A DNA stretch of 64,000 nucleotides from an uncultured Candidatus Saccharibacteria bacterium. Lineage in GTDB: Bacteria > Patescibacteriota > Minisyncoccia > Phycocordibacterales > UBA2100. This document shows positions 6,218-58,936 of this stretch, one piece after another (position 1 is the stretch's first letter; each line of letters begins with the position of its first letter). The stretch spans positions 105,037 to 169,036 of the forward strand of contig CAZELA010000002.1 in the NCBI GenBank assembly GCA_964512835.1. Reading direction: 5' to 3'. The translations under genes and the position numbers were made by a program. The notes beneath the pieces are model-generated. The model worked only from the letters and a program-made list of their open reading frames with translations. It was not told the origin of the DNA and searched no databases.

Positions 6218-6258
6218 TCAATTTTCACACACGTTTCGTGACCGCGAAACGCACCCGC

Positions 6259-32154: not shown

Positions 32155-32238
32155 CATTCAGTTAAGCCGTAAAATCGGTACTTATCCACATTGGAAACCC
32201 TCGTAAAGAGGGTACGGGTGCTACGATTCTTAGTAAGT

Positions 32239-36371: not shown

Positions 36372-36403
36372 ATATGACGCTAAAAAACCGCTATACTGCT
36401 CGT

Positions 36404-39093: not shown

Positions 39094-39870
39094 TCATTCC
39101 TCAACGGCCGGTGACGGGATGATGAAGGGGGTGTTTACACTCAGGATCGTTGTCGTGGATTCGTAATTATCACCGTGGACAAGTACGCCGCGCACGGACG
39201 GCGTATCATCGATAAGTACGTCCACTGTCCCGGTGGCGATCCGCTGTACAAGGGATCGTAGCGTTCCGCCCTCGACAAGCTGCCCCTCCTTCGATACTCG
39301 GAAACGATACGAGTGGTACGTCGTGGTGCCGACCGAGAGGTCGGTCGGTTTACCGGTAAGCGTCAGATACGCGCCGCCGTTCCCAAGGATCGCCAGCGTG
39401 TCCAAAAACGGTCCCGCAACGGCGATGTTCTGATACTGCGGGGGAATGGAAGCTGCGGGTAGGCGGTGCCACTCCGGACCGTTTGGGATCGTCTTTTTTA
39501 AGAGCGGGCTGTCAGTCTCGATTTTTACGTACACGCTGTCTCCGACAGCCAGGTTCTGGAGGCTAAAAGTATGGGATTGCTCATGTTTGGACAGTTCGGG
39601 CGTGAAGAGGGTGGTGGTTGCGAACGATCCATATCGTTTGCCCTCATAATCCAGCCTATAGAGGCCGGAAATGCGCATAGCGCGCGCCGAGACCACGGTC
39701 GCTGTGTCCACTGTCATTTCGTACGATCGAAGCCCTTGAACGGCTTGTATAGCGGTTTGAAGCCGCTCATCGAACGAGCCCGATGACTCCGCTCTGTAGA
39801 GTAGGTATCCGCCTACCAACAGACCGACAAGGCAGATGGCTATCGCATATCTGTAAACGTGCGTATGCAT
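39094..39870 (-). CDS. Membrane-anchored exported protein (hypothetical)
   Basis: The start is trimmed to ATG 39870 (MHTHVYRYAIAICLVGLLVGGYLLY is a signal-anchor); the track begins at 39993. No recognisable motif. Co-directional with the cohesin-dockerin adaptor. Confidence 0.5.
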   Translation of the reverse strand: MHTHVYRYAIAICLVGLLVGGYLLYRAESSGSFDERLQTAIQAVQGLRSYEMTVDTATVVSARAMRISGLYRLDYEGKRYGSFATTTLFTPELSKHEQSHTFSLQNLAVGDSVYVKIETDSPLLKKTIPNGPEWHRLPAASIPPQYQNIAVAGPFLDTLAILGNGGAYLTLTGKPTDLSVGTTTYHSYRFRVSKEGQLVEGGTLRSLVQRIATGTVDVLIDDTPSVRGVLVHGDNYESTTTILSVNTPFIIPSPAVEE

Positions 39871-40041
39871 GGCGGACGTCTCATCAGTGTATAGGTCATC
39901 AGGTAGAGAACAAGGGGTTCGTCGCGCAAAAAAGGACAGCGACCGGATCAAAAAATGGCGAAAGACAAACTCGACACCTCGAAAGTTGTCCACATCGAAA
40001 AATAGGCTAAAAACCTAGGGATTATACAATTACCTCATGAC

Positions 40042-40088
40042 ATCTCGACCCCCGAGATTGCATAAATGAGTAAAACTCGACCCTCGAG
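40042..40088 (+). promoter_or_regulatory. Two palindromic operator-like sites immediately upstream of, and overlapping the start of, the HTH gene
   Basis: Site 1 is ATCTCGACCCCCGAGAT (40042..40058, perfect 6-bp arms). Site 2 is CTCGACCCTCGAG (40076..40088, perfect 5-bp arms). Both share the half-site CTCGA-CCC-TCGAG, are about 30 bp apart, and the second abuts the start codon at 40091/40097. Confidence 0.4.
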
Positions 40089-40090
40089 AT

Positions 40091-40486
40091 TTGCCTATGA
40101 TGACGAAAAAAAGCGAATACATTTCACTTCGAGAAGCGGCGGCCATGTCCGGCTACACTCCCGACTATGTCGGGCAGTTGATTCGCAGCGGAAAACTGCC
40201 GGGTAAGCAGGTGTTTGCAAACGTCGCTTGGATGACGACCGAGGACGCACTTCGTGACTACATGGACAAAAAGCGTGGTGCTCCGCTCACAAAAGGGGCG
40301 GTATCGACGGGTTTTATGAACACTATTCAGCGAGAGATCGAATCGCCGCGCCTCGTAAAGCGGCTTTCGATCGCTCTCATGATCGTGAGCGTCGCATTCC
40401 TGATGCTTGTTTTCTACATATTTTCAACTTCGCTCGACCAGCGACTCAATCAGCGCGCCATTCAGCGCCTCGAGCAACAAACCTGA
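40091..40486 (+). CDS. Small helix-turn-helix (excisionase/MerR-like HTH) protein with a C-terminal TM helix
   Basis: The HTH is ISLREAAAMSGYTPDYVGQLIRSGKLPGKQV; the pattern hydrophobic-xxEAA..hG.s...h..hh..G.hP is typical of HTH_17/excisionase-type domains. A C-terminal TM follows (LSIALMIVSVAFLMLVFYIFS). The track uses TTG 40091; ATG 40097 is equally possible. Confidence 0.65.
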   Translation: MPMMTKKSEYISLREAAAMSGYTPDYVGQLIRSGKLPGKQVFANVAWMTTEDALRDYMDKKRGAPLTKGAVSTGFMNTIQREIESPRLVKRLSIALMIVSVAFLMLVFYIFSTSLDQRLNQRAIQRLEQQT

Positions 40487-40490
40487 TCAC

Positions 40491-43400
40491 ATGAACACAC
40501 ATACACGATCATGGGTAAGCATGAATCGAAGCATCCCGCGACTGATCGCGGTTCTTGCATGTGTGATTATGTGCACGATTGCTTTCGCAGACACGGCGCA
40601 CGCAGCAACCGGGGTGCCGCGAATCATGAACTACCAGGGCCGTCTCATGAACTCGGGCGGTTCGCTCCTCGGCGGATCGAGCGGCACGGATTACTGCGTA
40701 AAGTTCTCGCTCTACGACAACGCATCCGTCGGTTCCGGCACGAAGCTGTGGCCGTCGTCGGCGCCGTCGACTATGACGGTCAATGTGAAGAGCGGTGTGT
40801 TTAATGCGGGTGTGGGAGACACGAATGCCGGGGGAGACACGTTGAACTTTGATTTTGAGTCGAACGATGCGGTGTACCTCAACGTCGAAGTGGCAAGCAA
40901 GGTCGGTGCGACGTGCGCTGCCGGCGACGGTGCAGAGAGTTTTGAAAATCTGTCACCCCGTCAGCGCGTGACCGCGTCGGGGTACGCAATCAATTCTGCA
41001 ACGCTCGGCGGTCAGACCGGGGCGTACTACCGCGCAAATTCATACTCAACCACGAGTGCCGCGTACGACCTCTCAACGTACGACAAAGGGTATTTCTTTT
41101 CGACGACGTCGGTGAACTACTGGAATTCGACGGTAGGTGCCTGGGCGACAACCTCGTCAGATGCGTGGTTTGCAACAAAGACGACAGATAACCTTCCGCA
41201 GGGTATTACGAATCTGTACTACTCGAACAGCGCGGTCAATGCATTCCTTGCGGGATCAACGACGGTTGCGAAGTCGTTCAGTAACAACTCGTTCAGCGGC
41301 GTGAATAATTTCACGGGCGACGTAACGCTCACCAATGCGACGACCTCGAATTTTAATATTCTGAACACTGTTTCGGGTGGCGGACTTGTTTCGTGCTCGG
41401 CGAGTTCGGACAAACTCATCTGGAATGCTACGACGCGGCAGTTCGGATGTGGTGCAGATGCCGGGGCAGGCGGCGGTTTGACGGCGCTCGGGGCGGAATT
41501 CTCCTCGTATCAGACAGGTTCGTCTCAGACGCTTGCAACGAGCTCGGATACAAACATCGGCATCACCATTACGTCATCCGGCGACACGCACACGTTCACC
41601 CCGACCTGGTCGGGAACACTCGGTGCCGGTCGCGGCGGAACCGGTATCGGTTCGGTATCACAAAACGGCATCCTGATCGGCGCGGCGGGAAATACATGGT
41701 CGCAGGTATCAACGTCGTCCCTCGGTCTGCCGACATTTGCGACTCTCTCGTCGTATCTCGGACTCTCGGCGTGGTACGCAACCACGACCGATGCGCTTAC
41801 CGAAGGTGTAACGAACAAGTATTACACCGATACACGCGTTGCGAGCGTGATCGCAGGCACGACTACCGACGCGCTCGCAGAGGGTGCAACAAACAAGTAC
41901 TACACGGACAACCGCGTACAAACATACTTGAACGGCGTCGACAAGGGGTTCTACTTTTCTACCACCAGCGCATCACAGTTCGCATCCGTCGGTCTTGCGT
42001 TCTCGACAACATCAGCAGCGTACTTTAATTCCGTTAATCCCGGGGCATCATTTTCTACCACATCGGCCTCGTACTTCTCGTCGCTCGGTCTCGCATACTC
42101 GACGACATCGACTGCGTTCAATCTGTCGACCTACGACAAGGGTTACTTCTTCTCGACCACATCGGTCGCGTTCTGGGATTCGACGCAGTTCCGATGGGCA
42201 ACCACCAGCTCGGACGCATGGCTCGCGACGAAGTCGACAACGGATCTTGCCGAAGGCAGCAACCTCTACTACACGCCGACTCGTGTTGCCGGTGTGATTG
42301 CAGGCACCACGACCGATGCGCTGGCAGAGGGAACGAACAATAAGTACTTCACCGATAATCGTGTGGCGAGCGTGATCGCCGGCACCACAACTGATGCGCT
42401 TGCCGAGGGAAGCGTGAACAAGTACTACTCGAACGGGTTGGTGCAGACGTATTTGAACGGCGTCGACAAAGGCTACTTCTTCTCGACCACGTCGGCGCTG
42501 TACTTCAATGCGCAGAATCCTGGTGCGTCGTTCTCAACAACCTCTGCGGATTTCTGGAAGACGCAGAACAATTTCCACTCAACCACATCGTTTGCGTTTA
42601 ATCTTTCGACCTACGACAAGGGATACTTCTTCTCGACGACATCGGTGAATTACTGGGAGGGAACACAGAACCGCTGGGCGACAACATCATCAGATGCGTG
42701 GCTTGCGACCAAGTCCACGAGCGATCTTGCGGAGGGAAGTAATCTCTACTACACCCCGACTCGTGTTGCCGGTGTGATTGCAGGCACCACGACCGATGCG
42801 CTGGCAGAGGGAACGAACAATAAGTACTTCACCGATAATCGTGTCGCAACCGTTATCGCCGGCACTACCACTGATTCACTCGCAGAGGGTGCGACAAACA
42901 AGTATTACCAGGATTCGCGCGTTGCCTCATACATCAACGGCTCGTCCACGATCCCGTCGGTCGGGGGAGGTGCGTACGGCGATATCTTATCGTGGAACGG
43001 TTCGCGCTGGAGCGTGGCTGCTACATCATCGATCGGGCTCCCGACATTTGCGAATCTTGCAAACTACTTCACGCTCGCGTCGTGGTACGCAACCACAACT
43101 GATGCGCTCGACGAGGGAGTAAACAATATGTATTTCACGCCGGCGCGGTTTGCAGCATCGCTCGCAGCGACAACGACCGACGCGCTCGCGGAAGGCACGA
43201 ACAATCTCTACTTCTCTACGAACCGAGTCGCGACGGTACTTGCCGCAACCACAACCGATGCGATCGCAGAGGGAAGCGCGAACAAGTACTACAATGATTC
43301 CCGCGTTCAGACGTTCCTTAATACAATTTCCAAAGGCTACTTCTTCTCCACCACGTCGGCGTCGAATTTTGCATCCGCCGGACTCGCGTTCTCTACCACG

Positions 43401-46400
43401 TCGACCGACTACTGGAAGTCGCAGCAGAATTTCCACTCGACGTCATCGTTTGCGTTTAATCTCGGAACGTACGACAAGGGGTACTTCTTCTCGACCACAT
43501 CGGTTAATTACTGGGAGGGAACACAGAACCGCTGGGCAACCACCAGCTCGGACGCATGGCTTGCGACGAAGTCGACCAGTGATGTGGCCGAGGGTATCAA
43601 TCTGTACTTCACGCCGACGCGCGTTGCGGAGATTATTGCCGGCACCACAACTGATGCGCTTGCCGAGGGAAGCGTGAACAAGTACTACTCGAACGGGTTG
43701 GTGCAGACGTATTTGAACGGCGTCGACAAAGGCTACTTCTTCTCGACCACATCGGCAGCGTATTACGCTTCGCAGAATCCGCAGAGCTTCTCGACGTCGT
43801 CTGCGAATTACTACATGCAGGCTTCGACGACGGTTCCGAAAACATATTCAAACAACACGTTCACCGGAACCAATGATTTCCAAAACGTGACTGCCGCCAG
43901 CGCGACGTCGACGACCTCATTTACGGGTACCGCATCGTCCAGCAATCTGTATTCGAACATCGCGAACATCGGCTCCTTGATCGCGGGCGCATTCACCGGA
44001 AACGTCATCACCGCAACGAATGCAACCACGACAACCTTGTACGCAGGCACCGCATCCTCGACGAATTCGTTCACAAATACCGCGACCATTGGTACTGCGA
44101 ACGTGGGCAGCGCAACGGTTAATTCGTTGACGCTCAATAATGCGCTGACCGCGGGCAACGGGGGAACCGGACTGAGCACGGTGACGCAAAACGCTCTATT
44201 AATAGGAGGCCCGGCCAACACCTGGACGCAGATTGCTACGTCGTCGCTCGGGCTGGTCGCATTCTCTGATCTGGGTGCCTACATGGGCTTGGCACAGTGG
44301 TATGCAACGACAACCGATGCGCTCGCCGAGGGATCAAACAATAAGTACTTTACGGTAAATCGCGTCGCTGCCGTGCTTGCCGCAACCACGACGGATGCGA
44401 TCGCAGAGGGAAACACCAATCTCTACTTCACACCGAATCGTGTTGCGGGTGTCATTGCGGGCACCACAACCGACGCGCTTGCCGAAGGCACAACGAATAA
44501 GTACTACTCGAACGGTTTGGTTCAGACATATTTGAACGGAATCGACAAGGGGTTCTACTTCTCGACGACCAGCTCGGATGCATGGCTCAACACGAAAACC
44601 TTTGCTTCGTTCTCGACCACATCGGCGGACTATTGGAAAACGCAGAACAATTTCCACTCCACGACCTCGTTCGCGTTTAATCTTTCGACTTACGACAAGG
44701 GTTATTTCTTCTCGACGACATCGGTGAACTACTGGGAGGGAACACAGAACCGCTGGGCAACCACCAGCTCGGACGCATGGCTTGCGACCAAGTCCACGAG
44801 CGATCTTGCGGAGGGAAGTAATCTCTACTACACCCCGACTCGTGTTGCCGGTGTGATTGCGGGCACGACGACGGATGCGCTCGCAGAGGGTGCAACAAAC
44901 AAGTACTACCAGGATTCGCGCGTTGCCTCATACATCAACAGCTCGTCCACGATCCCGTCAATTGGAGGCTCATCCTACGGAGACATTCTGTCATGGAACG
45001 GTTCGCGCTGGAGTGTTGCAGCTACATCTTCGATCGGGCTTCCGACATTCGCAAACCTTGCAAACTACTTCACGCTCGCATCGTGGTACGCAACCACAAC
45101 TGATGCGCTCGACGAGGGCGTAAACAATATGTATTTCACTCCGGTACGCGTGGCAACCGTGCTTGCCGCAACGACGACCGATGCGATCGCAGAGGGAACG
45201 AATAACCTCTACTTTACCGCTAATCGCGTTGCGAGCGTTTTGGCGGCAACGACGTCTGACGCAATCGCTGAAGGCTCGACCAATCAGTACTACACCGATA
45301 ACCGAGTGCAGTCGTTCCTGAACACGGTCTCAAAAGGCTACTTCTTCTCGACCACGTCTGCTTCAAATTTCGCGGCAGCCGGGCTCGCATTCTCCACGAC
45401 GTCATCGAACTACTGGCTTTCGACTCAGACGATACCTTCGTTCTCGACAACCTCTGCAGATTTCTGGAAAACCCAGAACAATTTCCACTCCACGACCTCG
45501 TTCGCGTTTAATCTTTCGACTTACGACAAGGGTTATTTCTTCTCGACGACATCGGTGAACTACTGGGAGGGAACACAGAACCGCTGGGCAACCACCAGCT
45601 CGGACGCATGGCTTGCGACCAAGTCCACGAGCGATCTTGCGGAGGGAAGTAATCTCTACTACACCCCGACTCGTGTTGCCGGTGTGATTGCAGGCACCAC
45701 GACCGATGCCCTGGCAGAGGGATCGAATAACAAGTACTACACGGACAACCGCGTCCAAACATACTTGAACGGTGTCGATAAGGGCTTCTACTTCTCGACC
45801 ACTTCGGCATCGGTGTTCTCGGCCCGCGGCCTTTCGTTCTCGACGACCTCCACCGACTATTGGCGAAGCGTAAACAACTTCTTCTCGACAACGAGCGCGT
45901 CGCACTTCTCGTCGCTCGGTCTCGCGTTCTCGACAACATCAGCCGCGTATTTCCTCGGGCTGAATCAGGGCGCGGCATTCTCGACAACATCAGCAAATCA
46001 TTTTGTCGATGCATCAACAACGATCCCCAAGACATATACGAACAACACGTTCAGTGGGACGAACAGTTTCTCGAACATTACGTTCGTGCAGGGCACCTCG
46101 ACCTCGCTCTTTGCAAATGTGTTGTCGGCGGTCAGCAGCTTGTTCGGCAGCTTTAGCGCTACATCGACAACAGCCACGTCCACCATCTCGGGACCGGTGG
46201 CGTTTGGTACATCCACAACGAACTATAAGTATTCGTTCATGGGCCAGACAACCGGTGCGACCGGTGCCACAGGCACAGCGATTGTTGCGATATCGAACGA
46301 CAACAATACGCTTTCGTCCGGCAACAATGTGTTGCGACTCAACCTCCGAACGCCGTACGCGACCGCATGTACGAGCGCAACGACGTGCCCGCGATTCGAG

Positions 46401-49400
46401 GAATATTTCACGGGTGTGAATTCGGGATCAGACACTGGTGGACGCAGCGTGGGCAGTCTCCGTTTGTCGACTGCAGGAACGGGCATCACACAGACCTCAG
46501 GCGCGGCCGACTTTGCGGAGTACATGCAGCTGAGCGAGTCCGCGGCGGTCGGCGATATCGTATCGCTCAACTCGAGCGGTGAGTATCGAAAGGCGACGGC
46601 GGGCGAGTCGCTGATCGGCGTCGTCTCTGACAATGCCGCATTCGTCGGTAATGCAAATCTTGAGGGCGAAACGAACGCATATATCGTGGGTTTTGCCGGC
46701 GTGATTCGCACGACGGTCTCGACCGCAAACGGCACCATCAATGCAGGTGATCTTATCGCCGCCTCAGACGTGCCGGGCGTCGGTATCAAGCTGTCGAAAT
46801 CCGGTTATGCACTCGGTCAGGCACTCGAAAGCTACAGCGGCGGCGGCCAGGGAACAATCGCGGTGTTGGTACTGCCGAAATTCGTAGATGCAGCCGTGGC
46901 GCTCGAGAGCTACGGTGGCGGCGCATCCGGCGCGTCCGGGTACTGGGATCTCTCGACGAGCACGAATACCGTATCGCTCGCATCGAGCACGTATTCGGTA
47001 TCGATCGGGACGAGCGCATCGACATCGAACCTTGTCGTGTCGAACGGATTCACGTTCGGCAAGGCAAGCGGCGTGCTCAAGTCGGTTGCCGGTGTCGTTA
47101 CCTCGACGCTCGTAAACCTCGCCGGCGATGTGACCGGCGTGCTCGGTATTTCAAACGGGGGAACGGGAACTTCGACCGCACCGCAGAATGGTCAGGTGCT
47201 CGTCGGTAACGCTACTGGCGGCTACGACCTCGTGGCGGCCTCGACACTTGTTTCGCAGAATCAGGGTAATACATTCTCCACCACCTCAACCGACTACTGG
47301 AAAACACAGAATAATTTCTTCTCCACCACCTCTGCTTCAGTCTTCTCCGCAAATGGTCTATCGTTCTCGACCACCTCGACCGACTATTGGCGAAGCGTAA
47401 ACAACTTCTTCTCGACAACGAGCGCGTCGCACTTCTCGTCGCTCGGTCTTGCGTTCTCGACCACGTCGGCGCAGTACTTCCTCGGACAGAATCTTGGCGG
47501 CGCGTTCTCGACCACCTCGACCGACTACTGGAAAACGCAGAATAATTTCCACTCGACCACCTCGACCGCATACGATCTCTCGACCTATGACAAGGGATAC
47601 TTCTTCTCCACTACATCAGCCTCCGCGTTCCTCGCGCTCAATCAGGGCGCGGCGTACTCCACAACCTCTGCAGCATTCAATTTGTCGACCTACGACAAGG
47701 GATACTTCTTCTCGACGACATCGGTGAACTACTGGGAGGGAACACAGAACCGCTGGGCAACCACCAGCTCGGACGCATGGCTTGCGACCAAGTCCACGAG
47801 CGATCTTGCGGAGGGAAGTAATCTCTACTACACCCCGACTCGTGTTGCCGGTGTGATTGCAGGCACCACGACCGATGCGCTCGCGCAGGGTGCGACCAAC
47901 AAGTACTTCAGCAACGGGCTTGTTGATCAATACCTTGCGTCGTCGTCGTCCGTCCCGAAAACCTTCACGAACAATACGTTCACGGGTACCAATGCATTCG
48001 GCGCGATCACCGCGGGCGGCGCAACGACGACCGCGCTTTCTACGAATAGTGCGTCGACCTCGAACCTTGTTATCTCAACCCTTCAGAATTCCATGCTCTA
48101 CACAGGGGCGGGCGGCGTCGTTTCGGCCGCGACAATCTCGGGACCGCTTTCGTTCTCTGCCGGCACGCTCTCGATCCAGCAGGCAAGTGCGTCTCAGAAC
48201 GGTTACCTTTCGTCGTCGGATTTCAATTCGTTCAATAACCGACTCTCCACGTCGTCACTCAATACTATAGATAGGGGACAGTTCTTCTCGACCACCTCGG
48301 CGTCGGCGTTTTCTGCGAGCGGCCTTTCGTTCTCGACCACCTCGACCGACTACTGGCGAAGCGTAAACAACTTCTTCTCGACAACGAGCGCGTCGCACTT
48401 CTCGTCGCTCGGTTTGGCGTTCTCGACGACATCCGCATCCACATTCCTCGGGCTGAACCAGGGAGCTGCGTTCTCCACCACGTCGGCATCGAACTTCGCA
48501 GCTGCGGGCCTCGCGTTCTCGACGACCTCGGCACAATATTTCCAGTCGCAGAACGACACGTCGTACTCCACGACTTCGGAGAATTATTATCAGCAGTCGT
48601 CGACGACGGTCGTGACTGCATACAAGAACAACACGTTTACCGGCACCAATTCGTTCCAGAACATCACTGCGACCGGCGCAACCACCACTGTTATCTCGAC
48701 AACCATTGCGTCAACGACGAATCTCGTTGTATCGGGCCAGTCCAATGCATTACTCGGTACGGGTGCAAATGGGGTTGTACAGGCAACCACGTTCTCAGGC
48801 CCGCTCTCGTACAACGGCGGCATTCTCACGCTCACGCAGTCCGGTGCAGCACAGAACGGCTACCTTTCATCCACCGATTGGAATTCGTTTAACAGCCGAC
48901 TCTCCACCAGCACACTCGCGCTCATCGATAAGGGCTTCTTCTTCTCGACCACATCCGCATCGGTATTTGCGGCGTCGGGCCTCGCGTTCTCGACGACCTC
49001 GACGGATTACTGGAAATCGCAGAATAATTTCTTCTCGACCACTTCGGCATCGTTCTTCTCGACCCTTGGTCTCGCATTCTCCACCACATCGGCTGCGTAC
49101 TTTACGTCACAGAACCAGGGTGCGTCGTTCTCGACTACTTCGCAGAATTACTACATGCAGTCATCGACCACCGTTCCCACAACCTACAAGAACAACACAT
49201 ACACCGGCACGAATTCATTCCAGAATGTCACGGCGACCGGCGCAACCACCACCGTTATCTCGACCGGCATCGCATCGACCACGAACCTGGTGGTCGGTAT
49301 CTCGAACGGCCTCCTCGGGTCGGCCGTGAACGGCGCAGTGCAGGCAACCACGTTCTCGGGACCGCTCTCGTACAACGGCGGCATTCTCACGCTCACGCAG

Positions 49401-51614
49401 TCCGGTGCAGCACAGAACGGCTACCTTTCATCCACCGACTGGAATTCGTTTAACAGCCGACTCTCGACCAGCACACTCGCGCTGTTTGATAAGGGCTATT
49501 TCTTCTCGACGTCATCGACCGATTACTACATGCAGTCATCAACAACGGTGCCGACGACCTACAAGAACAATACGTTCATCGGTGTGAACGCATTCGCGAA
49601 CATCACGGCGACCGGTGCTACCACCACGTCGCTCTTTACCGGGGTCGCATCCTCGACGAACCTCTTCTCGACATCTGCGCGCTTCGGTTCACTCGCGGGC
49701 TTCTCACTCACGGGATCCGTTGCCGCTGCTGCAAACAGCATTACGGGCATCAACATCGCATCCACGACCGACCTGTGGATCTCGAATATTCGTAACGGAC
49801 TGCTTGCGACTAACGGGCAGGGGACGGTCGTCGCATCATCAACCCCCACTGCGTCGAGCTTTAACGCGACAAGCAATACGGCTTCTCAGCTACCATACGC
49901 ATCAACGACCGCGATCTCGGCATTGCAACAGCTTTCTATCGGTGCAGCGAACGGCACGATATTGCAGGGCGGTTCAACAGGAACGTCGACCATCGCCGGT
50001 GTCATCAATGTTACGGGCACGAACTCGACGTCGACCTTCTCGGGAGGGGTGAGCGCAACACGATTCAGCTTCTCGGCTACGTCCACCGGCTCACAGGGTA
50101 TCAACCTCACCGGCGGCTGTTTTGCCATCAACGGCACGTGCGTGAGCGGCGCCGTGAATTCGGTGAGTGCAACAAATACAACGCTGACCGTAAATCCGAA
50201 TGCGGGCAACGTGGGCATCTCGCTCAATCTTTCCAATCCGAATCTCTGGACCGGCTTGCAGCAGTTCGGAAATGCGACGACGAGCCTGCTCGAGGCAACG
50301 CAGTTCTATGCACGCACGATCGCCGCAACGTCGTCGAACGTGCTTTCGTTGCAGGGTAATTCGGGACTGACATTCGGTTCTACGACCGCGCAGATGCTCG
50401 CGATCACACCGTCGACGAACCGGGTCACACTCGGCACCGGCGGATCGAACCCGTCGCTCCTCGTGCTCGACACGAAGAACACGGCAGGAGACCCAACGGG
50501 TATCGACGGATCGATGTATTTCAACTCGAATATAGGCGTATTTCGCTGCTACAACGGTGGATGGGTAACCTGCGGCGGGGAAGCGGCAAGCTCGACCGGC
50601 GACGTACAGTTCCGAAACGTGGACGGCTCGTTCACCGCGACATCGAACTTTAACTGGTCGCAGGTCGGCAACGGCCTCACACTTACGGGCTCATCCACAA
50701 CGCAGACGCTCGATATCTTCAAGATCGCCTCGAGCTCCGGTCGAGTTATGTTCGGGGTCAGTGGTATGGGTATTGTCGCTCTCTCTACAACGACAGACCC
50801 CACGACTCCGCCAGCCGGCGAACTTAATATATACGCAAAAGAAATCGCTGGACGAGTCATGCCGAAATGGGTCGGTCCTGCCGGTGTAGACACGCCGTTT
50901 CAGGCAGGCCTCGGCTTTAACCGGACTGCGCTCATGATGCCCGCCGGCGGTGCGACTGCGACAACTTTTATCGGTGGCTACGGATCGACATTTACAAACG
51001 TTGTAACGACCGCGGCAAATCCGACCCCTGCAACGACGAACCTTTTGACATCCACGAGACGTGCCACGTTCAGTACGAACGCAACCGCAAACACGATTAC
51101 ATCTCATCGCCAAAGTACGTTGCAGGTTACTCGCGGTAACGCTTCAAATATTGGAGGATTCTTCTACACCATCCGTTTTGGAACGTCGGCAACCGCCGCC
51201 GGTAATCGCGTGTTCGTGGGCCTCTCAGATTCTGTAGCTGCCCCGACGAACATTGATCCACTCGTGACGGGTACAATCGGGCGCGTAGGCATGGCTGCTA
51301 ATCTCAATACCGGCAACTGGAGCTTTGTTCAAAATGCAGCGGGTACCGGCGTTACTGCATTTAATCTCGGCGCGAATTTCCCGATTGATAACACAAGCTT
51401 GTACGAGCTCATTTTGTACGCGAAACCGAATGACACGGTGATAAATTATCGAGTCACGAATTTGTCCACGGGAGCGCAGATTTCAAGTACGACGAACCCA
51501 ACCAACCTGCCCAGCAATACCACGTATCTCGCGCCTCAATTCTGGATGGTCAATGTTGCCGCATCAATCGTGACATTTGACTTCGGTGGGTGGTATTTGG
51601 AAAGTGACCAGTAA
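40491..51614 (+). CDS. Giant (about 3700 aa) secreted fibrous protein built from phage-tail-fibre-type repeats
   Basis: The start is placed at ATG 40491 or 40521 (MNRSIPRLIAVLACVIMCTIAFADTAHAA is a signal peptide); the track begins at 40407. There are dozens of units of about 20 aa of the form TTDALAEG[ST]NNKY[YF]TDNRV..VIAG. These match the phage tail fibre repeat consensus (T.D.L.EG..NLY.T..R.), as recalled from memory. They are interleaved with units such as GYFFSTTS..F......FSTTS. The C-terminal 900 aa are non-repetitive. Confidence 0.85.
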   Translation: MNTHTRSWVSMNRSIPRLIAVLACVIMCTIAFADTAHAATGVPRIMNYQGRLMNSGGSLLGGSSGTDYCVKFSLYDNASVGSGTKLWPSSAPSTMTVNVKSGVFNAGVGDTNAGGDTLNFDFESNDAVYLNVEVASKVGATCAAGDGAESFENLSPRQRVTASGYAINSATLGGQTGAYYRANSYSTTSAAYDLSTYDKGYFFSTTSVNYWNSTVGAWATTSSDAWFATKTTDNLPQGITNLYYSNSAVNAFLAGSTTVAKSFSNNSFSGVNNFTGDVTLTNATTSNFNILNTVSGGGLVSCSASSDKLIWNATTRQFGCGADAGAGGGLTALGAEFSSYQTGSSQTLATSSDTNIGITITSSGDTHTFTPTWSGTLGAGRGGTGIGSVSQNGILIGAAGNTWSQVSTSSLGLPTFATLSSYLGLSAWYATTTDALTEGVTNKYYTDTRVASVIAGTTTDALAEGATNKYYTDNRVQTYLNGVDKGFYFSTTSASQFASVGLAFSTTSAAYFNSVNPGASFSTTSASYFSSLGLAYSTTSTAFNLSTYDKGYFFSTTSVAFWDSTQFRWATTSSDAWLATKSTTDLAEGSNLYYTPTRVAGVIAGTTTDALAEGTNNKYFTDNRVASVIAGTTTDALAEGSVNKYYSNGLVQTYLNGVDKGYFFSTTSALYFNAQNPGASFSTTSADFWKTQNNFHSTTSFAFNLSTYDKGYFFSTTSVNYWEGTQNRWATTSSDAWLATKSTSDLAEGSNLYYTPTRVAGVIAGTTTDALAEGTNNKYFTDNRVATVIAGTTTDSLAEGATNKYYQDSRVASYINGSSTIPSVGGGAYGDILSWNGSRWSVAATSSIGLPTFANLANYFTLASWYATTTDALDEGVNNMYFTPARFAASLAATTTDALAEGTNNLYFSTNRVATVLAATTTDAIAEGSANKYYNDSRVQTFLNTISKGYFFSTTSASNFASAGLAFSTTSTDYWKSQQNFHSTSSFAFNLGTYDKGYFFSTTSVNYWEGTQNRWATTSSDAWLATKSTSDVAEGINLYFTPTRVAEIIAGTTTDALAEGSVNKYYSNGLVQTYLNGVDKGYFFSTTSAAYYASQNPQSFSTSSANYYMQASTTVPKTYSNNTFTGTNDFQNVTAASATSTTSFTGTASSSNLYSNIANIGSLIAGAFTGNVITATNATTTTLYAGTASSTNSFTNTATIGTANVGSATVNSLTLNNALTAGNGGTGLSTVTQNALLIGGPANTWTQIATSSLGLVAFSDLGAYMGLAQWYATTTDALAEGSNNKYFTVNRVAAVLAATTTDAIAEGNTNLYFTPNRVAGVIAGTTTDALAEGTTNKYYSNGLVQTYLNGIDKGFYFSTTSSDAWLNTKTFASFSTTSADYWKTQNNFHSTTSFAFNLSTYDKGYFFSTTSVNYWEGTQNRWATTSSDAWLATKSTSDLAEGSNLYYTPTRVAGVIAGTTTDALAEGATNKYYQDSRVASYINSSSTIPSIGGSSYGDILSWNGSRWSVAATSSIGLPTFANLANYFTLASWYATTTDALDEGVNNMYFTPVRVATVLAATTTDAIAEGTNNLYFTANRVASVLAATTSDAIAEGSTNQYYTDNRVQSFLNTVSKGYFFSTTSASNFAAAGLAFSTTSSNYWLSTQTIPSFSTTSADFWKTQNNFHSTTSFAFNLSTYDKGYFFSTTSVNYWEGTQNRWATTSSDAWLATKSTSDLAEGSNLYYTPTRVAGVIAGTTTDALAEGSNNKYYTDNRVQTYLNGVDKGFYFSTTSASVFSARGLSFSTTSTDYWRSVNNFFSTTSASHFSSLGLAFSTTSAAYFLGLNQGAAFSTTSANHFVDASTTIPKTYTNNTFSGTNSFSNITFVQGTSTSLFANVLSAVSSLFGSFSATSTTATSTISGPVAFGTSTTNYKYSFMGQTTGATGATGTAIVAISNDNNTLSSGNNVLRLNLRTPYATACTSATTCPRFEEYFTGVNSGSDTGGRSVGSLRLSTAGTGITQTSGAADFAEYMQLSESAAVGDIVSLNSSGEYRKATAGESLIGVVSDNAAFVGNANLEGETNAYIVGFAGVIRTTVSTANGTINAGDLIAASDVPGVGIKLSKSGYALGQALESYSGGGQGTIAVLVLPKFVDAAVALESYGGGASGASGYWDLSTSTNTVSLASSTYSVSIGTSASTSNLVVSNGFTFGKASGVLKSVAGVVTSTLVNLAGDVTGVLGISNGGTGTSTAPQNGQVLVGNATGGYDLVAASTLVSQNQGNTFSTTSTDYWKTQNNFFSTTSASVFSANGLSFSTTSTDYWRSVNNFFSTTSASHFSSLGLAFSTTSAQYFLGQNLGGAFSTTSTDYWKTQNNFHSTTSTAYDLSTYDKGYFFSTTSASAFLALNQGAAYSTTSAAFNLSTYDKGYFFSTTSVNYWEGTQNRWATTSSDAWLATKSTSDLAEGSNLYYTPTRVAGVIAGTTTDALAQGATNKYFSNGLVDQYLASSSSVPKTFTNNTFTGTNAFGAITAGGATTTALSTNSASTSNLVISTLQNSMLYTGAGGVVSAATISGPLSFSAGTLSIQQASASQNGYLSSSDFNSFNNRLSTSSLNTIDRGQFFSTTSASAFSASGLSFSTTSTDYWRSVNNFFSTTSASHFSSLGLAFSTTSASTFLGLNQGAAFSTTSASNFAAAGLAFSTTSAQYFQSQNDTSYSTTSENYYQQSSTTVVTAYKNNTFTGTNSFQNITATGATTTVISTTIASTTNLVVSGQSNALLGTGANGVVQATTFSGPLSYNGGILTLTQSGAAQNGYLSSTDWNSFNSRLSTSTLALIDKGFFFSTTSASVFAASGLAFSTTSTDYWKSQNNFFSTTSASFFSTLGLAFSTTSAAYFTSQNQGASFSTTSQNYYMQSSTTVPTTYKNNTYTGTNSFQNVTATGATTTVISTGIASTTNLVVGISNGLLGSAVNGAVQATTFSGPLSYNGGILTLTQSGAAQNGYLSSTDWNSFNSRLSTSTLALFDKGYFFSTSSTDYYMQSSTTVPTTYKNNTFIGVNAFANITATGATTTSLFTGVASSTNLFSTSARFGSLAGFSLTGSVAAAANSITGINIASTTDLWISNIRNGLLATNGQGTVVASSTPTASSFNATSNTASQLPYASTTAISALQQLSIGAANGTILQGGSTGTSTIAGVINVTGTNSTSTFSGGVSATRFSFSATSTGSQGINLTGGCFAINGTCVSGAVNSVSATNTTLTVNPNAGNVGISLNLSNPNLWTGLQQFGNATTSLLEATQFYARTIAATSSNVLSLQGNSGLTFGSTTAQMLAITPSTNRVTLGTGGSNPSLLVLDTKNTAGDPTGIDGSMYFNSNIGVFRCYNGGWVTCGGEAASSTGDVQFRNVDGSFTATSNFNWSQVGNGLTLTGSSTTQTLDIFKIASSSGRVMFGVSGMGIVALSTTTDPTTPPAGELNIYAKEIAGRVMPKWVGPAGVDTPFQAGLGFNRTALMMPAGGATATTFIGGYGSTFTNVVTTAANPTPATTNLLTSTRRATFSTNATANTITSHRQSTLQVTRGNASNIGGFFYTIRFGTSATAAGNRVFVGLSDSVAAPTNIDPLVTGTIGRVGMAANLNTGNWSFVQNAAGTGVTAFNLGANFPIDNTSLYELILYAKPNDTVINYRVTNLSTGAQISSTTNPTNLPSNTTYLAPQFWMVNVAASIVTFDFGGWYLESDQ
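42270..47890. repeat. Dispersed near-identical intragenic repeats (88 to about 440 nt) within the 11-kb gene
   Basis: For example, gactcgtgttgccggtgtgattgcaggcaccacgaccgatgcgctggcagagggaacgaacaataagtacttcaccgataatcgtgt is identical at 42279 and 42759. Blocks of about 200 nt beginning ctacgacaagggttatttcttctcgacgacatcggtgaactactgggagggaacacagaaccgctgggc recur at about 44690, 45530 and 47695. The YGDILSWNGSRWSVAATSSIGLPTFANLANYFTLASWYATTTDALDEGVNNMYFTP block recurs at about 42960 and 45000. Confidence 0.7.
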
Positions 51615-51635: not shown

Positions 51636-52514
51636 ATGTATAGATCCGACAACAAATCTGCAGTGTGCCTACTCTCACTCGCGATCACGCTCATGATCAC
51701 GGTGCCGTTTATCGCGTTTGCAGAGGCCGAAGCACAGGCGGCCGATGCAGCTGCTCAGATCGCAGAGACAACATCTGTTATGCCTGAGGCGTCGGCAGAC
51801 ACCGCCGCGACTGATTCTGTCGTCAATACGCCCGCGCCCACAAGTGAACAGTCGACTGAGGCGGTGCAAGAAACTGCCACGAGTACGCAGAGTACAGCGG
51901 GAGTCGACGAACTTGCCGGTACGGTCGACCCGACGGAAGGGGGGACCGAAAGCACGCCGATACCGGTCGAAGAAGCTACATCGACCGATGCGGTCACGCC
52001 CGAAACTATTCCGCTTCCGGAACCGACGCCTAATCTTGCACCCGACCAAATACCGGTAGAGGCGCATTCTGACCTCACCGTTGTTGCGACGGGTATCAAG
52101 GACGAAGCACGCGAACTCAGTAATGCAGAGCTCAACGCGCTCATCGAGCCTGATTTCGTGACGCAATTGTCGGGCAAAACGATTCCGACCAAGGTGAAGG
52201 TTGGTGAGTCGGAAGCAGTAACAGCGACGGCTGACCCCGTTTCCGGAGATCTTCATCTCTCGGGTACATGCGATGATATCTACTATGTCGTGCTGTTGTA
52301 CAAGAACCAGACCGACTACGAAACCGACCCGGGCTCGTACATTGTGAATAGGGCATACCCTTGCACGAACGGCGCGTACACCTATACGCTCGACGATATC
52401 CCTCCGAGAGTGCAGAACGGCACCTACTATCTGTTGATCGGTGCTCAGGGTGAGCACGGTTCATGGCGACCGGTCACCCCGCTTCAGGAAGTATCTATTA
52501 ATAGAAGCCATTAA
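51636..52514 (+). CDS. Secreted acidic Thr/Glu/Pro-rich protein with a C-terminal globular domain (hypothetical)
   Basis: Signal peptide (AVCLLSLAITLMITVPFIAFAEA), then a low-complexity acidic linker. The C-terminal domain of about 130 aa contains Cys pairs (CDDIYYVVLLY...CTNGAY). Confidence 0.55.
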   Translation: MYRSDNKSAVCLLSLAITLMITVPFIAFAEAEAQAADAAAQIAETTSVMPEASADTAATDSVVNTPAPTSEQSTEAVQETATSTQSTAGVDELAGTVDPTEGGTESTPIPVEEATSTDAVTPETIPLPEPTPNLAPDQIPVEAHSDLTVVATGIKDEARELSNAELNALIEPDFVTQLSGKTIPTKVKVGESEAVTATADPVSGDLHLSGTCDDIYYVVLLYKNQTDYETDPGSYIVNRAYPCTNGAYTYTLDDIPPRVQNGTYYLLIGAQGEHGSWRPVTPLQEVSINRSH

Positions 52515-52524
52515 GCCTGTATCC

Positions 52525-52923
52525 ATGATTCAAACCATCGTTCGTTCGATCACGCAGGGCCTCATATTCGCCATATTCGCCGCGAGCGTGCTTTTTGTGT
52601 ATGCGAATCACATCGCGCCCTCGCAAGTTAGCGCGTTTCCTGCTGTGCCTTCCGAGAAATGGCAGGCGGTATTTCTCTCCGGCGGCCAGGTCTATTTTGG
52701 CAAGCTAACGGACGCGGGTATCGGATACGTCACACTTTCAGACGTGTACTACCTTAAATCCGCAAGTGAGCTGGAACAGTCCAATCTCAACCTCGTAAAA
52801 CTCGGTGGTGAACTGCATGGTCCGGAGGACACCATCTATATCCGCAAAGAAAGCATCTCGTTCTGGGAGAACATGAAAGATTCCTCGCGCGTCGTGCAGT
52901 CAATCGAAAGCGCGAAGCGCTAA
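52525..52923 (+). CDS. Small N-terminally anchored exported protein (hypothetical)
   Basis: The start is trimmed to ATG 52525 (MIQTIVRSITQGLIFAIFAASVLFVYA). The track ORF start at 52441 overlaps the previous gene. About 100 aa of soluble domain. Confidence 0.45.
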   Translation: MIQTIVRSITQGLIFAIFAASVLFVYANHIAPSQVSAFPAVPSEKWQAVFLSGGQVYFGKLTDAGIGYVTLSDVYYLKSASELEQSNLNLVKLGGELHGPEDTIYIRKESISFWENMKDSSRVVQSIESAKR

Positions 52924-52928
52924 GGCCT

Positions 52929-53399
52929 ATGACCATCGATCTCCGTAAACATGCAGCCCGTCCGGAATACGAACACGCCCGTATGCCGAACGCGCCGCGC
53001 GCGGAGACGCATACCGATGTTCCGCGTGCGCGTATGCAGCCGAAACGGTCACGCGAAAAGCTTGTGATGCTCGTTGCGGCGGGCGCAATCGCACTTATTG
53101 TGTTGATACTCGTTATATTCGGTATCACAAAGGCGTGGGGAGCGCTTTTTGGCGGAACCGAATACGAAATGAAGTCTCTGGTTGCCGACGTCGGCGAGCA
53201 CATGCTCCTGCCGGAGAACGAAACCCCGACACTCGCGACCGTGAGCGATCTGCACGCGCTCGAAGGGCAGATGTTCTTCCGCAATGCGGCAGTGGGCGAC
53301 AAGGTCCTTATGTACCTCGTATCGCAACAGGCGATTCTGTATCGGCCTTCGATCGACAAGATTATTGAGGTCGGGCCGATAACCGGCAGTGCACAATAA
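52929..53399 (+). CDS. Small N-terminally anchored exported protein (hypothetical)
   Basis: Basic N-terminus, one TM (LVMLVAAGAIALIVLILVIFGI), then about 100 aa of soluble domain. Its stop is 1 nt before the next gene's start. Confidence 0.45.
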   Translation: MTIDLRKHAARPEYEHARMPNAPRAETHTDVPRARMQPKRSREKLVMLVAAGAIALIVLILVIFGITKAWGALFGGTEYEMKSLVADVGEHMLLPENETPTLATVSDLHALEGQMFFRNAAVGDKVLMYLVSQQAILYRPSIDKIIEVGPITGSAQ

Positions 53400-53400
53400 T

Positions 53401-54735
53401 ATGTATGCCTCGCGTACACAGCGAAAAGCAATCGGCGCGTTCGTCGCGGCGGTGCTGTGTGCACTGACAACGTCGTACGTGTTTGCAGACCAGCTATCGA
53501 GCTCGAATTTTCAATTCAATGACTCGGGTTTTACGCAGCTCGGCGGCTACTCCACAACAACGAATTTTAAACAGTTCGGCACACTACAGCCTATTGCCGA
53601 CGGCGAGTCGCAGAGTACGCACTTTCTCCTCGCCGGGGGGTATCTGTACCCGGCTGATACTACGCCTCTCGTTACCCAGAACTGGCGTTGGTACGACGAT
53701 TCAGTGAACGATGAACCGACGATCCCATATGCGTCGGAAAACGTCGCCCCGTCCGCCGTGGGCTACGACGATCCGTTGAAACTTCGCATCACCGTAAAGG
53801 ACGACAGCGGTGCCGGCGTCACACATGTAAAACTGCGACTGCAATTCGCGACATCGTCCGATTTTTCCGAAGGAGTTTCGTTTGTGGGCGAGCAGGGCAC
53901 CTGCGGCACGACGACATGGTGCTATGCAAACGGGGGCGGCACCGACAATCAGCCTGTCCAGTCTAATTTGTTGTCGGATTCGCAGAGCTGTTCCGGCGGC
54001 GTCGGAGACGGGTGCGGTACGTATAACGAGTCGGGAACGTCAACATCACTCTTCTTCCATTGGCCGAGCACCCGTCGTGAGTACGACTTTACGATCAAGC
54101 AATCAAACGCGCCGCAAAGTACGGTGTACTTTTTCCGTCTCGTCGACGCAGAAACGGGTTCTCCGCTTGGATTAAACTCGGGCGCAACATACCCGAGCCT
54201 TACCGTCGCAGGCGGCACGCTGACCTTTTCAATCGGCGGACTCGCGTCAGGGACGTCTACGGAAGGTGTGGTGACCGATGTTACAACGTCTCCCACTACG
54301 GTCGGATTCGGAACGCTGACGCTCGGAGCGCCGACAATCGCTGCGCATCGCCTTACGGTGAACACAAATGCAGGCTCCGGGTATAAGATCTACACGTATC
54401 AACGGCAGGGGTTGCTGAGTGCAACCTCCAAAGAAATTGCGCCGTTTATAGCAACCAACGACGCACCGCTCGGATGGAGTACCGGCTGTACGTCCACGTC
54501 GACGGGATGTTACGGATACCATACCGGCAAGGATGTGCTCGAGGGAGGTTCCACGCGATTTGCCGCCGACGATTCATTCGCAAAGTTCACTTCAATCCCG
54601 ACCGAGGTTGCATTCGGTTCAGGACCGGCGACCGACGAGACGACGGACATCGTTTACAAGATTGAGGTGAACGATCTGCAGGACGCAGGGTCATATCAGG
54701 GAGCGATTCTCTATATTGTTACCCCCGTCTTTTAA
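53401..54735 (+). CDS. Secreted beta-rich protein with a WxL-like C-terminal motif (...YQGAILYIVTPVF), paralogous to 57679..58833
   Basis: ATG 53401 (MYASRTQRKAIGAFVAAVLCALTTSYVFA is a signal peptide). It has Thr/Gly-rich beta segments of the form T.TF.I.G.A.GT. An upstream Trp motif (LGWSTG) lies about 95 aa before the C-terminal L.Y.V.TPVF motif. Confidence 0.7.
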   Translation: MYASRTQRKAIGAFVAAVLCALTTSYVFADQLSSSNFQFNDSGFTQLGGYSTTTNFKQFGTLQPIADGESQSTHFLLAGGYLYPADTTPLVTQNWRWYDDSVNDEPTIPYASENVAPSAVGYDDPLKLRITVKDDSGAGVTHVKLRLQFATSSDFSEGVSFVGEQGTCGTTTWCYANGGGTDNQPVQSNLLSDSQSCSGGVGDGCGTYNESGTSTSLFFHWPSTRREYDFTIKQSNAPQSTVYFFRLVDAETGSPLGLNSGATYPSLTVAGGTLTFSIGGLASGTSTEGVVTDVTTSPTTVGFGTLTLGAPTIAAHRLTVNTNAGSGYKIYTYQRQGLLSATSKEIAPFIATNDAPLGWSTGCTSTSTGCYGYHTGKDVLEGGSTRFAADDSFAKFTSIPTEVAFGSGPATDETTDIVYKIEVNDLQDAGSYQGAILYIVTPVF

Positions 54736-54767
54736 GTTGTGCATAAAAAGCAGCTCTAATCCTTGTT

Positions 54768-56111: not shown

Positions 56112-56113
56112 GT

Positions 56114-58833: not shown

Positions 58834-58936
58834 ACGCAGCAAACAGAGCTCGAAGTTTGCAGACATCCCCGCACTACGCGGGGATGTTGCGTTCATGGCG
58901 TGGTACAGTATGGCCATACTCCCTAAGACGGAAAAC

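Follow-up and report, generated by a model that had tools for sequence, protein, structure and literature searches.

A putative membrane-anchored autoregulator and its conserved twin palindromes at the head of a giant-fibre operon in candidate phyla radiation bacteria

The window analysed here is a 64,000-nucleotide stretch from an uncultured Candidatus Saccharibacteria bacterium (contig CAZELA010000002.1), belonging to the candidate phyla radiation (CPR, Patescibacteria). It possesses a small gene, termed HTH-TM, whose product is composed of a helix-turn-helix (HTH) domain and a single transmembrane (TM) helix; two palindromes sit directly in front of this gene and the gene of a giant fibre-like protein follows directly behind it. 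The arrangement raises the question of what a DNA-binding protein anchored in the membrane of an ultrasmall bacterium does at the head of a surface-protein operon, and whether the palindromes are its operators. The answer favoured here, which is considered fairly probable, is that of a membrane-tethered autoregulator, with the HTH-TM protein controlling the operon that it heads, most likely by repression.

The mechanical open reading frame (ORF) call begins with a TTG and extends over 40091..40486 of the plus strand, giving the 131-aa product described in an earlier note on this DNA. This frame stands; the start, however, is likely to be the ATG at 40097, as homologues open with MMTKK or MTQK, and the protein would then be of 129 aa (40097..40486). 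It is predicted to have a winged helix (residues 8-61), a disordered linker (62-72), a short helix (73-80), a TM helix (approximately residues 90-112) and a 16-aa tail. An AlphaFold (AF2) model built on 32 relatives has a mean pLDDT of 79.5 and gives the HTH domain a b-a-a-b-b-a topology, with a strand at 8-10, helices at 11-18 and 22-30, strands at 36-38 and 45-48 and a helix at 49-61; the linker and the short helix are followed by a single long helix (84-128), the pLDDT of which is 97 across residues 91-110. Within this helix, residues 90-108 have an average Kyte-Doolittle hydropathy of 2.7, and just 16 residues lie beyond the hydrophobic segment. Neither the model nor the hydropathy profile shows an effector domain or a MerR-type C-terminal coiled coil after the wing, only the linker and TM helix, and the topology is presumably N-in, with the winged helix in the cytoplasm.

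A Foldseek search of the PDB with residues ~8-61 returned Xis (4j2n) and BldC (6ama/6amk) with a probability of 1.0 and RacA (5i44) with 0.99, followed by MerR-family chains at lower values; target TM-scores were 0.6-0.83 overall and 0.71-0.83 for Xis and BldC, with E-values of ~0.03. The winged-helix fold thus superposes on solved members of the HTH_17/MerR superfamily, and the Xis/MerR-type HTH with a single TM helix that had been proposed from the letters of the sequence is borne out by fold match, hydropathy and structure prediction. At the family level, 26 of the 32 relatives match HTH_17 at E≤0.01 (best E-value 8e-6), while a sequence search of the PDB with the family profile produced only noise. 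Invariant positions in the alignment of the relatives include G19, Y20, D23, Y24, G26-R30, G32, K33, G36, Q38, V39, W45, T47, and T48. The recognition helix and wing are nearly invariant and the linker is free to vary; conservation is moderate in the TM helix and in a juxtamembrane motif (FYIFSxSxDxRL).

The two palindromes are putative operators, O1 (ATCTCGACCCCCGAGAT, 40042..40058) and O2 (AACTCGACCCTCGAGAT, 40074..40090), each with the conserved 17-bp unit ATCTCG-N5-CGAGAT and each kept in related loci. O1 is found 11 nt 3′ of a -10-like hexamer, and O2 lies 32 bp from O1 and 6 nt 5′ of the ATG. Together they form a 16-nt direct repeat, identical at 15/16 positions and 32 bp apart from start to start. 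They are the sole matches to the dyad with ≤1 mismatch in the 64-kb window, where the chance expectation for the exact 13 specified bases is <0.01 copies in 128 kb (both strands). Twin palindromes had been noted before with half-sites CTCGA...TCGAG; the pair itself holds, while the half-site and the limits of O2 are revised as given above. The second palindrome had also been thought to overlap the start codon. It abuts the TTG at 40091, which is judged an unlikely start, and ends 6 nt before the ATG, and across loci it is the distance to the -10 hexamer which the sites keep. A third operator near 39970 (CTCGACACCTCGAAAG) was rejected, being degenerate, wrongly spaced and conserved nowhere beyond a 99 % identical relative. 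A minus-strand terminator called at O2 was likewise discarded, as no gene is transcribed into O2, and so was a role as an invertible switch or excisionase site, since the sites are self-symmetric and no recombinase was found among the window ORFs scanned.

The HTH-TM family consists of 125-150-aa proteins of CPR bacteria, with 167 matches in a 90 %-clustered database and 4,715 representatives at E≤1e-3 (863 at E≤1e-10) in a 50 %-clustered library. The lineages named in the genome records belong to the Paceibacteria/Parcubacteria and include Adler-, Lloyd-, Sung-, Jorgensen-, Kaiser-, Azam-, Yanofsky-, and Doudnabacteria. The viral contigs of IMG/VR yielded no relative, and a phage origin was rejected on this ground. 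For a survey of the sites, 80 loci were taken, with one genome per species and a total of 1.14 Mb. The dyad (≤2 mismatches) is present upstream of the homologous gene in 78 of the 80; of these, 56 have a pair of sites, 7 have three and 15 a single one. At ≤1 mismatch the 1.14 Mb contain 117 sites, of which 112 are located at -260 to +40 of the gene start, 3 at -273 to -298 and 2 elsewhere, against a chance expectation of ~2.5 for the entire sequence; the possibility, raised in the earlier note, that the palindrome occurs at random frequency does not apply. These counts show the pattern by which comparative genomics identifies autoregulated transcription factors, a specific motif kept in front of the factor's own gene in divergent genomes and seldom seen elsewhere.

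The logo of 140 distinct sites reads aA-ATCTCG-[A/G]NNN[T/C]-CGAGAT-t, with half-site centres 11 bp apart and an asymmetric site centre that is found both ways round (ACCCC, GGGGT). This geometry fits a dimeric HTH protein, to judge from the aligned sites. Departures from the consensus are mostly one-sided, A:G occurring 22 times and A:T twice at pair 3-15, with no RNA-type covariation, which indicates that the bases themselves, and not their pairing, are conserved. Spacings between neighbouring sites are 31-32 bp in 28 cases, 24-25 in 12, 34-35 in 9, and 21 in 5. Two lineage-specific changes on the DNA-binding surface of the protein are accompanied by changes in the site: ATATCG half-sites are found in 12/13 loci of an S18F clade vs. 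11/67 elsewhere (p 2.5e-7), and GTCTCG..CGAGAC sites in 4/5 loci of a G19N/K37E clade vs. 2/75 elsewhere (p 4.6e-5), both p-values ignoring phylogeny and both co-variations reflecting few evolutionary events. The predicted DNA-binding surface of the proteins equals the half-site in invariance, which also counts in favour of a direct contact between the two.

The sole constant partner of the motif is the HTH gene. Downstream genes range from ~330 to >3,300 aa and their family differs by clade, so the regulator cannot be described as dedicated to the giant gene, as had been supposed. In the closer relatives the downstream protein shares the N-terminal 140-170 residues of the fibre protein; in distant relatives another protein takes its place, either a secreted one of ~600 aa that is acidic or rich in Ser/Thr, or an N-terminally anchored one of 1,700-2,200 aa. 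Every downstream partner possesses a signal peptide or an N-terminal anchor, and its gene begins at -4, -11 or a few nt relative to the HTH-TM stop codon in nearly all loci. One locus, L007, was taken up as a case lacking the fibre and then dropped, the gene calls having been misleading, as a fibre ORF (MRIRSDL...GAPRILNYQGRL) is present directly 3′ of the HTH-TM stop. A scan of metagenomes for twin sites gave ten CPR-type matches among those listed, all beside an HTH-TM gene and one of them cut by a contig end. In metagenome contigs of high GC (L091-L209, GC 0.55-0.70) there is an abundant hairpin repeat of ~55 nt, GTAGCCATCTCGCTCCGCGAGATG-N7-GTCTCGCGGAGCGAGACGGCTAC. It has no relation to the CPR operator, its half-sites being alike by chance, and has the look of a REP/MITE-type element.

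The sites are also fixed in place relative to the promoter. A putative sigma-70-type promoter is situated at 40003..40030 of the plus strand, with -35-like TAGGCT (40003-40008), a 16-nt spacer and -10-like TACAAT (40025-40030). It is preceded by a DnaA-box-like 9-mer, TTGTCCACA (39986..39994, plus strand), which has one exact copy in the window and is invariant in 6/7 close relatives. In relatives with 70-77 % identical proteins, the block GGCTAAAAAC...GGGATTATACAATT is nearly invariant while its flanks diverge, and the footprint as a whole comprises the kept blocks GTTGTCCACA and TAGGCTAAAAAC...GGGATTATACAATT, O1, O2 and the start codon, with free spacers between them. Across the survey, a DnaA-box-like TT[G/A/T]TCCACA in either orientation occurs ≤90 nt upstream of an operator in 59/78 loci vs. 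1.5 % of random positions; by its conservation the 9-mer appears as an upstream part of the HTH-TM promoter, and its name does not imply what binds it. In 61/78 loci a TAnA[AT]T -10-like hexamer is found 4-18 nt upstream of a site (5.8 % for random positions), whereas the last site can be as near to the gene start as 3 nt or as far from it as 168 nt. As the former distance is constrained and the latter varies, the sites follow the promoter and not the start codon. Counted from this promoter, O1 would cover about +5 to +21 and O2 about +37 to +53, which is a repressor-type position.

A generic promoter scan did not call the putative promoter at 40003-40030 on the plus strand, and a minus-strand promoter-like match (-35 at 40048-40043, -10 at 40026-40021) overlaps O1. 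MerR-style activation was considered, with -35-like ATGACA and -10-like ATAAAT flanking O1; by eye these are unconserved in other loci and the conserved upstream promoter was preferred. A MerR-type operator would sit inside a -35/-10 spacer of 19-20 bp, and the sites here are found 4-18 nt downstream of the -10-like hexamer. The region was also rejected as a replication origin, there being just one DnaA-like box, and the turn in GC skew at 40 kb coincides with the C-rich fibre gene. A second DnaA-box-like copy, TTATCCACA (32182-32190), is found in the gap preceding a gene of ~630 aa, 31 nt before a TACGAT.

Other CPR lineages carry the HTH domain as part of giant proteins. From the family, 261 proteins were retrieved, of which 220 have a single HTH (median 134 aa), with a hydrophobic segment after it in 217, and 40 have ≥2 HTH motifs, with a TM segment in 37. 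In the fused proteins two tandem HTH copies are followed by one TM helix (residues 130-203) and, beyond it, by a giant ectodomain of up to ~3,800 residues; P0123 (3,936 aa), P0135 (2,201 aa), and P0244 (4,003 aa) are examples, as are P0127, P0138 and P0140. By eye, the region following their TM helix resembles the N-terminus of the separate giants of loci L068, L080 and L087, which suggests, at the level of sequence, that split and fused forms of one system exist. Two HTHs per chain fit one dyad per protein, implying that the single-HTH form would bind as a dimer to each dyad. Four loci with fused genes were looked up (L210, L211, L212, and L213), and in all four a TT[A/T]TCCACA box lies directly 5′ of a TTGAC(A/T) -35, followed by a TAAAAT or TATAAT -10. 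The dyad occurs 3′ of this promoter-like pair, being perfect in L213 and L211 (where it ends 2 nt before the likely ATG) and having 1 mismatch in L210, while L212 has a degenerate copy only. WxLIP and dockerin genes are found downstream in L211, which places it in the same kind of cluster as the window; a 248-aa HTH_17-like gene lies just upstream as well.

It is worth mentioning that L213 has a second perfect dyad, ATCTCGTGTCTCGAGAT (1694-1710, +193 of the gene), placed in frame in the linker from HTH1 to HTH2, where it encodes NLVSRDF, and that an SRDF/VRDF motif recurs in this linker in other fused proteins (P0138, P0142). On these grounds the tandem HTH looks to have been born by duplication of an operator-plus-HTH unit.

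In the mechanism proposed, the Xis/MerR-fold winged helix of the membrane-anchored factor would bind the ATCTCG-N5-CGAGAT dyads as dimers. With O1 and O2 just 3′ of the factor's own -10 box, roughly over the start site and early transcribed region, the bound dimers would limit transcription of the operon, comprising the HTH-TM gene, the gene of the 3,707-aa fibre protein and the pilus-like surface genes. The membrane anchor would hold the regulator where the surface proteins are exported, and probably ties transcription of the operon to the condition of the surface apparatus; it is read as such a link because other CPR lineages fuse a duplicated HTH module to a giant surface protein as its cytoplasmic N-terminus. 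Judging by the fusions and the conserved anchor, the signal that relieves or strengthens binding would come from the surface proteins themselves. Binding of the HTH-TM protein to O1 and O2 is, from the sequence comparisons, somewhat more probable than this model as a whole, and repression of the operon somewhat less so.

Autoregulation, as already proposed in the earlier note, is the most economical reading, since the palindromes are a genuine conserved cis-element tied to the HTH-TM gene. It is favoured further by the persistence of the association between site and HTH when the downstream family changes and when the HTH is fused to a giant protein, and by the HTH-TM protein being the only DNA-binding fold found in the conserved cluster. 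There are also a number of points which weigh against it. The window protein on its own scores 20.9 bits (E 4.5e-4) against Pfam HTH_17 (PF12728), under the gathering cut-off of 27 bits, and the HTH assignment holds at the level of fold and family and falls short of the profile threshold for this single protein. The transcription start is placed from the -10-like hexamer alone, and the spacing of the sites does not always correspond to integral helical turns (24-25 and 34-35 bp besides 31-32). The dyad is absent upstream in loci L025 and L061. The metagenome scan was swamped, the ≥120 loci listed including ~95 with the unrelated high-GC hairpin repeat, several with a eukaryotic 20-nt satellite and a few miscellaneous. 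The leader RNA is predicted to fold into two hairpins from the palindromes (-17.4 kcal/mol, z -4.4). Finally, three of the four fused genes have a small soluble MerR/HTH_17 gene (70-80 aa) upstream in divergent orientation (L210 1822-2034, L211 1530-1745, L213 918-1160), the product of which could be the real binder at the fused loci.

Of the two loci without the dyad, L025 shows approximately eight tandem 9-nt repeats, TAATTAGRN (2607-2675), upstream of a paralogous HTH-TM gene, in the same metagenome-assembled genome as L063; these may be a different, direct-repeat operator.

A more far-reaching possibility, with perhaps a one-in-four chance, is that the giant surface proteins of CPR bacteria include the Xis/MerR-type DNA-binding module as a physical part, in some lineages as their cytoplasmic N-terminus and in others, the window among them, as a separate HTH-TM subunit made along with the fibre by joint translation. 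The amount of active repressor at the operator would in that case be set directly by the fibre's export, cleavage, assembly or host contact. As an example, the HTH-TM part could serve as a leader or partner which is released or degraded once per exported fibre. The DnaA-box-like element may additionally tie such a feedback to the cell cycle.

The anchor and the fusions would also be accounted for if the HTH-TM protein bound the sites to pin the operon DNA to the membrane in a transertion-like manner, bringing transcription, translation and export of the giant secreted proteins together in one spot, with little effect on the transcription rate. The anchor is kept in 217/220 single-HTH members, the nearest solved folds include a DNA-to-pole tether (RacA) and architectural binders (Xis, BldC), relatives carry the module as part of giant exported proteins, and all downstream partners have signal peptides or N-terminal anchors. 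However, sites placed directly after a -10 box are in the classic position for repression, and one or two sites per genome region would make a weak tether, so that a mainly architectural role is judged unlikely.

Slightly less likely again is that the palindromes act as RNA, the two 5′-leader hairpins controlling translation initiation or mRNA stability of the first gene without any binding by the HTH-TM protein. Both sites would be transcribed if the promoter is that at 40003-40030, and the leader is predicted to fold as given above. The site also lies close to the ATG (O2 6 nt before it in the clade of the window, 2 nt in L211), and Shine-Dalgarno motifs are mostly absent, most of ~20 window genes having no recognisable one in the 25 nt that precede the start codon; the structure of the leader could therefore play a part. 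Against this, one-sided changes which break pairs are common and compensatory ones rare, showing that identity is kept and not pairing, and it is the distance to the -10 hexamer which is constrained while that to the start codon varies. Regulation by RNA also leaves unexplained the strict co-occurrence with one DNA-binding family and the co-variation of protein and site.

RodZ uses its HTH to bind MreB, and the membrane HTH could similarly make protein-protein contacts for assembly of the surface apparatus while another factor binds the palindromes, e.g., a soluble MerR/HTH_17 protein such as those encoded beside three of the four fused genes; but this is improbable, as no soluble MerR/HTH_17 gene was found in the conserved Paceibacteria cluster or among the scanned window ORFs, the invariant residues fall on the recognition helix and wing, and the protein/site co-variation points to the membrane protein.

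With regard to the operon, the HTH-TM stop codon (40484-40486) is separated by a 4-nt gap from the ATG of the fibre gene (40491..51614, plus strand), confirming the tight junction reported earlier and placing HTH-TM at the head of an operon which contains the giant gene; another fibre ATG, at 40521, is the start in the gene call of the 99 % relative. The fibre-like protein of 3,707 aa starts with a signal peptide, its residues 1995-2064 match the Peptidase_G2 IMC autoproteolytic domain (28.1 bits, cut-off 25), and its synteny is conserved. This domain is in mid-chain and not C-terminal, which hints at self-cleavage into two large pieces. The remainder of the probable operon (51636..57430, plus strand) codes for small proteins and then three ~440-aa paralogues, with gaps of ≤32 nt and a gene order that recurs in relatives; from this spacing, co-transcription from the HTH-TM gene through 57430 would be expected. 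On the other side, a divergent gene (39094..39870, minus strand) for a 258-aa membrane-anchored protein shares an intergenic region of 226 nt with HTH-TM, as had been noted, and adjoins it in 7 loci.

The order of the cluster is kept down to ~40 % identity and runs from an ABC ATPase, a MacB/FtsX-like permease, five secreted proteins and two divergent membrane proteins to HTH-TM, the giant protein, three small proteins and the three ~440-aa paralogues. Some of the five secreted proteins have cohesin or dockerin domains. In the window, cohesin-/dockerin-like domains together with Ig-like repeats are seen in the secreted proteins encoded at 6061-7743, 35235-39078 and 61333-63033. The cohesin and dockerin proteins suggest a cellulosome-style plug-and-socket assembly on the cell surface. 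The ~440-aa paralogues (53389-57430) and a 374-aa protein (58895-60019) give weak or borderline matches to CPR_Pam_pilin_C, fimbrial chaperone and WxLIP_PGBD models (the last at ≤28.2 bits), and the ORF at 53389-54735 reaches 24.5 bits against CPR_Pam_pilin_C (NF058581), where the cut-off for membership is 55; by these matches they may represent a distant Pam-like pilus system in Paceibacteria, a class to which the Pam preprint gives no emphasis. The window also contains a second giant ORF (7894-27003) of 6,369 aa, Pro/Thr/Ala-rich with an N-terminal anchor and no detectable similarity to the fibre gene. The check whether HTH-TM genes recur upstream of other giant genes comes out negative for it, as neither an HTH-TM gene nor the palindrome lies upstream and a tblastn search of the window revealed no HTH-TM paralogue.

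Among known systems, ToxR, TcpP and CadC have a cytoplasmic N-terminal winged helix and a single TM helix, act on promoter DNA from the membrane and link the extracytoplasmic state to transcription without a phosphorelay. Like these, the HTH-TM protein has an N-terminal DNA-binding domain and one TM helix, and the fused HTH-HTH-TM-ectodomain proteins show the same layout. However, the ToxR-type domain is of the OmpR/PhoB type and that of HTH-TM is of the Xis/MerR type, with no match to Trans_reg_C (the OmpR/PhoB-type winged helix) in the window protein or its relatives. ToxR-type proteins also possess a periplasmic sensor domain where the window protein has 16 outside residues, and they usually activate from direct repeats upstream of the -35, unlike the window dyads, which are downstream of the -10. 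CadC has been described as a membrane-bound one-component regulator (PMC11484849). No description of the HTH-TM family was found in literature searches; it adds to the membrane-bound one-component regulators, standing apart from ToxR and CadC in its fold and its missing sensor.

Xis (4j2n), BldC (6ama/6amk) and HTH_17 proteins bear the best structural and Pfam likeness to residues ~8-61. They differ in being soluble proteins of 50-70 aa that have no TM helix and are not linked to genes of surface proteins, and Xis and BldC are architectural factors whose sites are direct repeats bound head-to-tail, not palindromic dyads as here. HTH-TM does not resemble an excisionase or recombination directionality factor in its setting, as no integrase was found among the scanned window ORFs and the chromosomal synteny is conserved across the class. 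RacA of Bacillus subtilis recognises a short palindrome with a MerR-like winged helix and attaches DNA to the cell envelope. It (5i44) is similar to HTH-TM in fold, palindrome and the DNA-envelope link, but is anchored indirectly via a coiled coil and DivIVA and has many sites around the origin; we know of no autoregulation by RacA and of no link to a surface fibre.

In Clostridium thermocellum, the anti-sigma sensors of cellulosome genes (RsgI/SigI) are single-pass membrane proteins which link extracellular binding domains to transcription of cohesin/dockerin-complex genes. The logic is the same and the window cluster also has cohesin and dockerin proteins, but RsgI works through an anti-sigma domain in the cytoplasm and a sigma factor that partners it. 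The HTH-TM protein had been called anti-sigma-like, which is not upheld: no sigma factor, anti-sigma domain or site-2 protease was found among the scanned window ORFs, and the lone 'antisigma' match in the window is noise on another ORF (E 0.075). [quoted passage not shown] Its pilins are reported mainly from Saccharimonadia and Microgenomatia, and its description makes no mention of a helix-turn-helix protein or of transcription (bioRxiv 10.64898/2026.03.03.709456). The window genes at 53389-57430 resemble it in their weak matches to CPR_Pam_pilin_C and pilus-chaperone models, all of them far below cut-off. In eukaryotes, a chaperone domain of the phage tailspike kind releases the membrane-bound transcription factor MYRF (PMC3742443). 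MYRF and the system here have in common a DNA-binding domain, a TM helix and an autoproteolytic chaperone domain of the tail-fibre type, which here is the Peptidase_G2 IMC domain of the neighbouring fibre protein. The two differ in DNA-binding fold, in domain order and in kingdom, and the IMC domain of the window is in an exported protein and not between DNA-binding domain and TM helix, and the resemblance is a lead only.

A large part of bacterial diversity belongs to the CPR bacteria, which appear to rely on surface appendages for attachment to their hosts, while very few of them are cultivable. To our knowledge, almost nothing is known of their gene regulation. The present analysis describes a widespread and previously undescribed regulator family (at least 863 clusters at 50 % identity, E≤1e-10), together with its probable operator and a conserved promoter layout in front of a giant-fibre/pilus-like operon. 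The operator and the HTH domain provide a handle that is testable in vitro without cultivating the organism. Natural fusions of the HTH to surface proteins of 2,000-4,000 aa suggest that the cell surface communicates directly with the promoter. Should this be confirmed, it would be a new coupling of surface-structure production to transcription, and if the repressor level is indeed set by export, it would amount to a secretion- or contact-coupled transcriptional feedback of a kind undescribed in bacteria.

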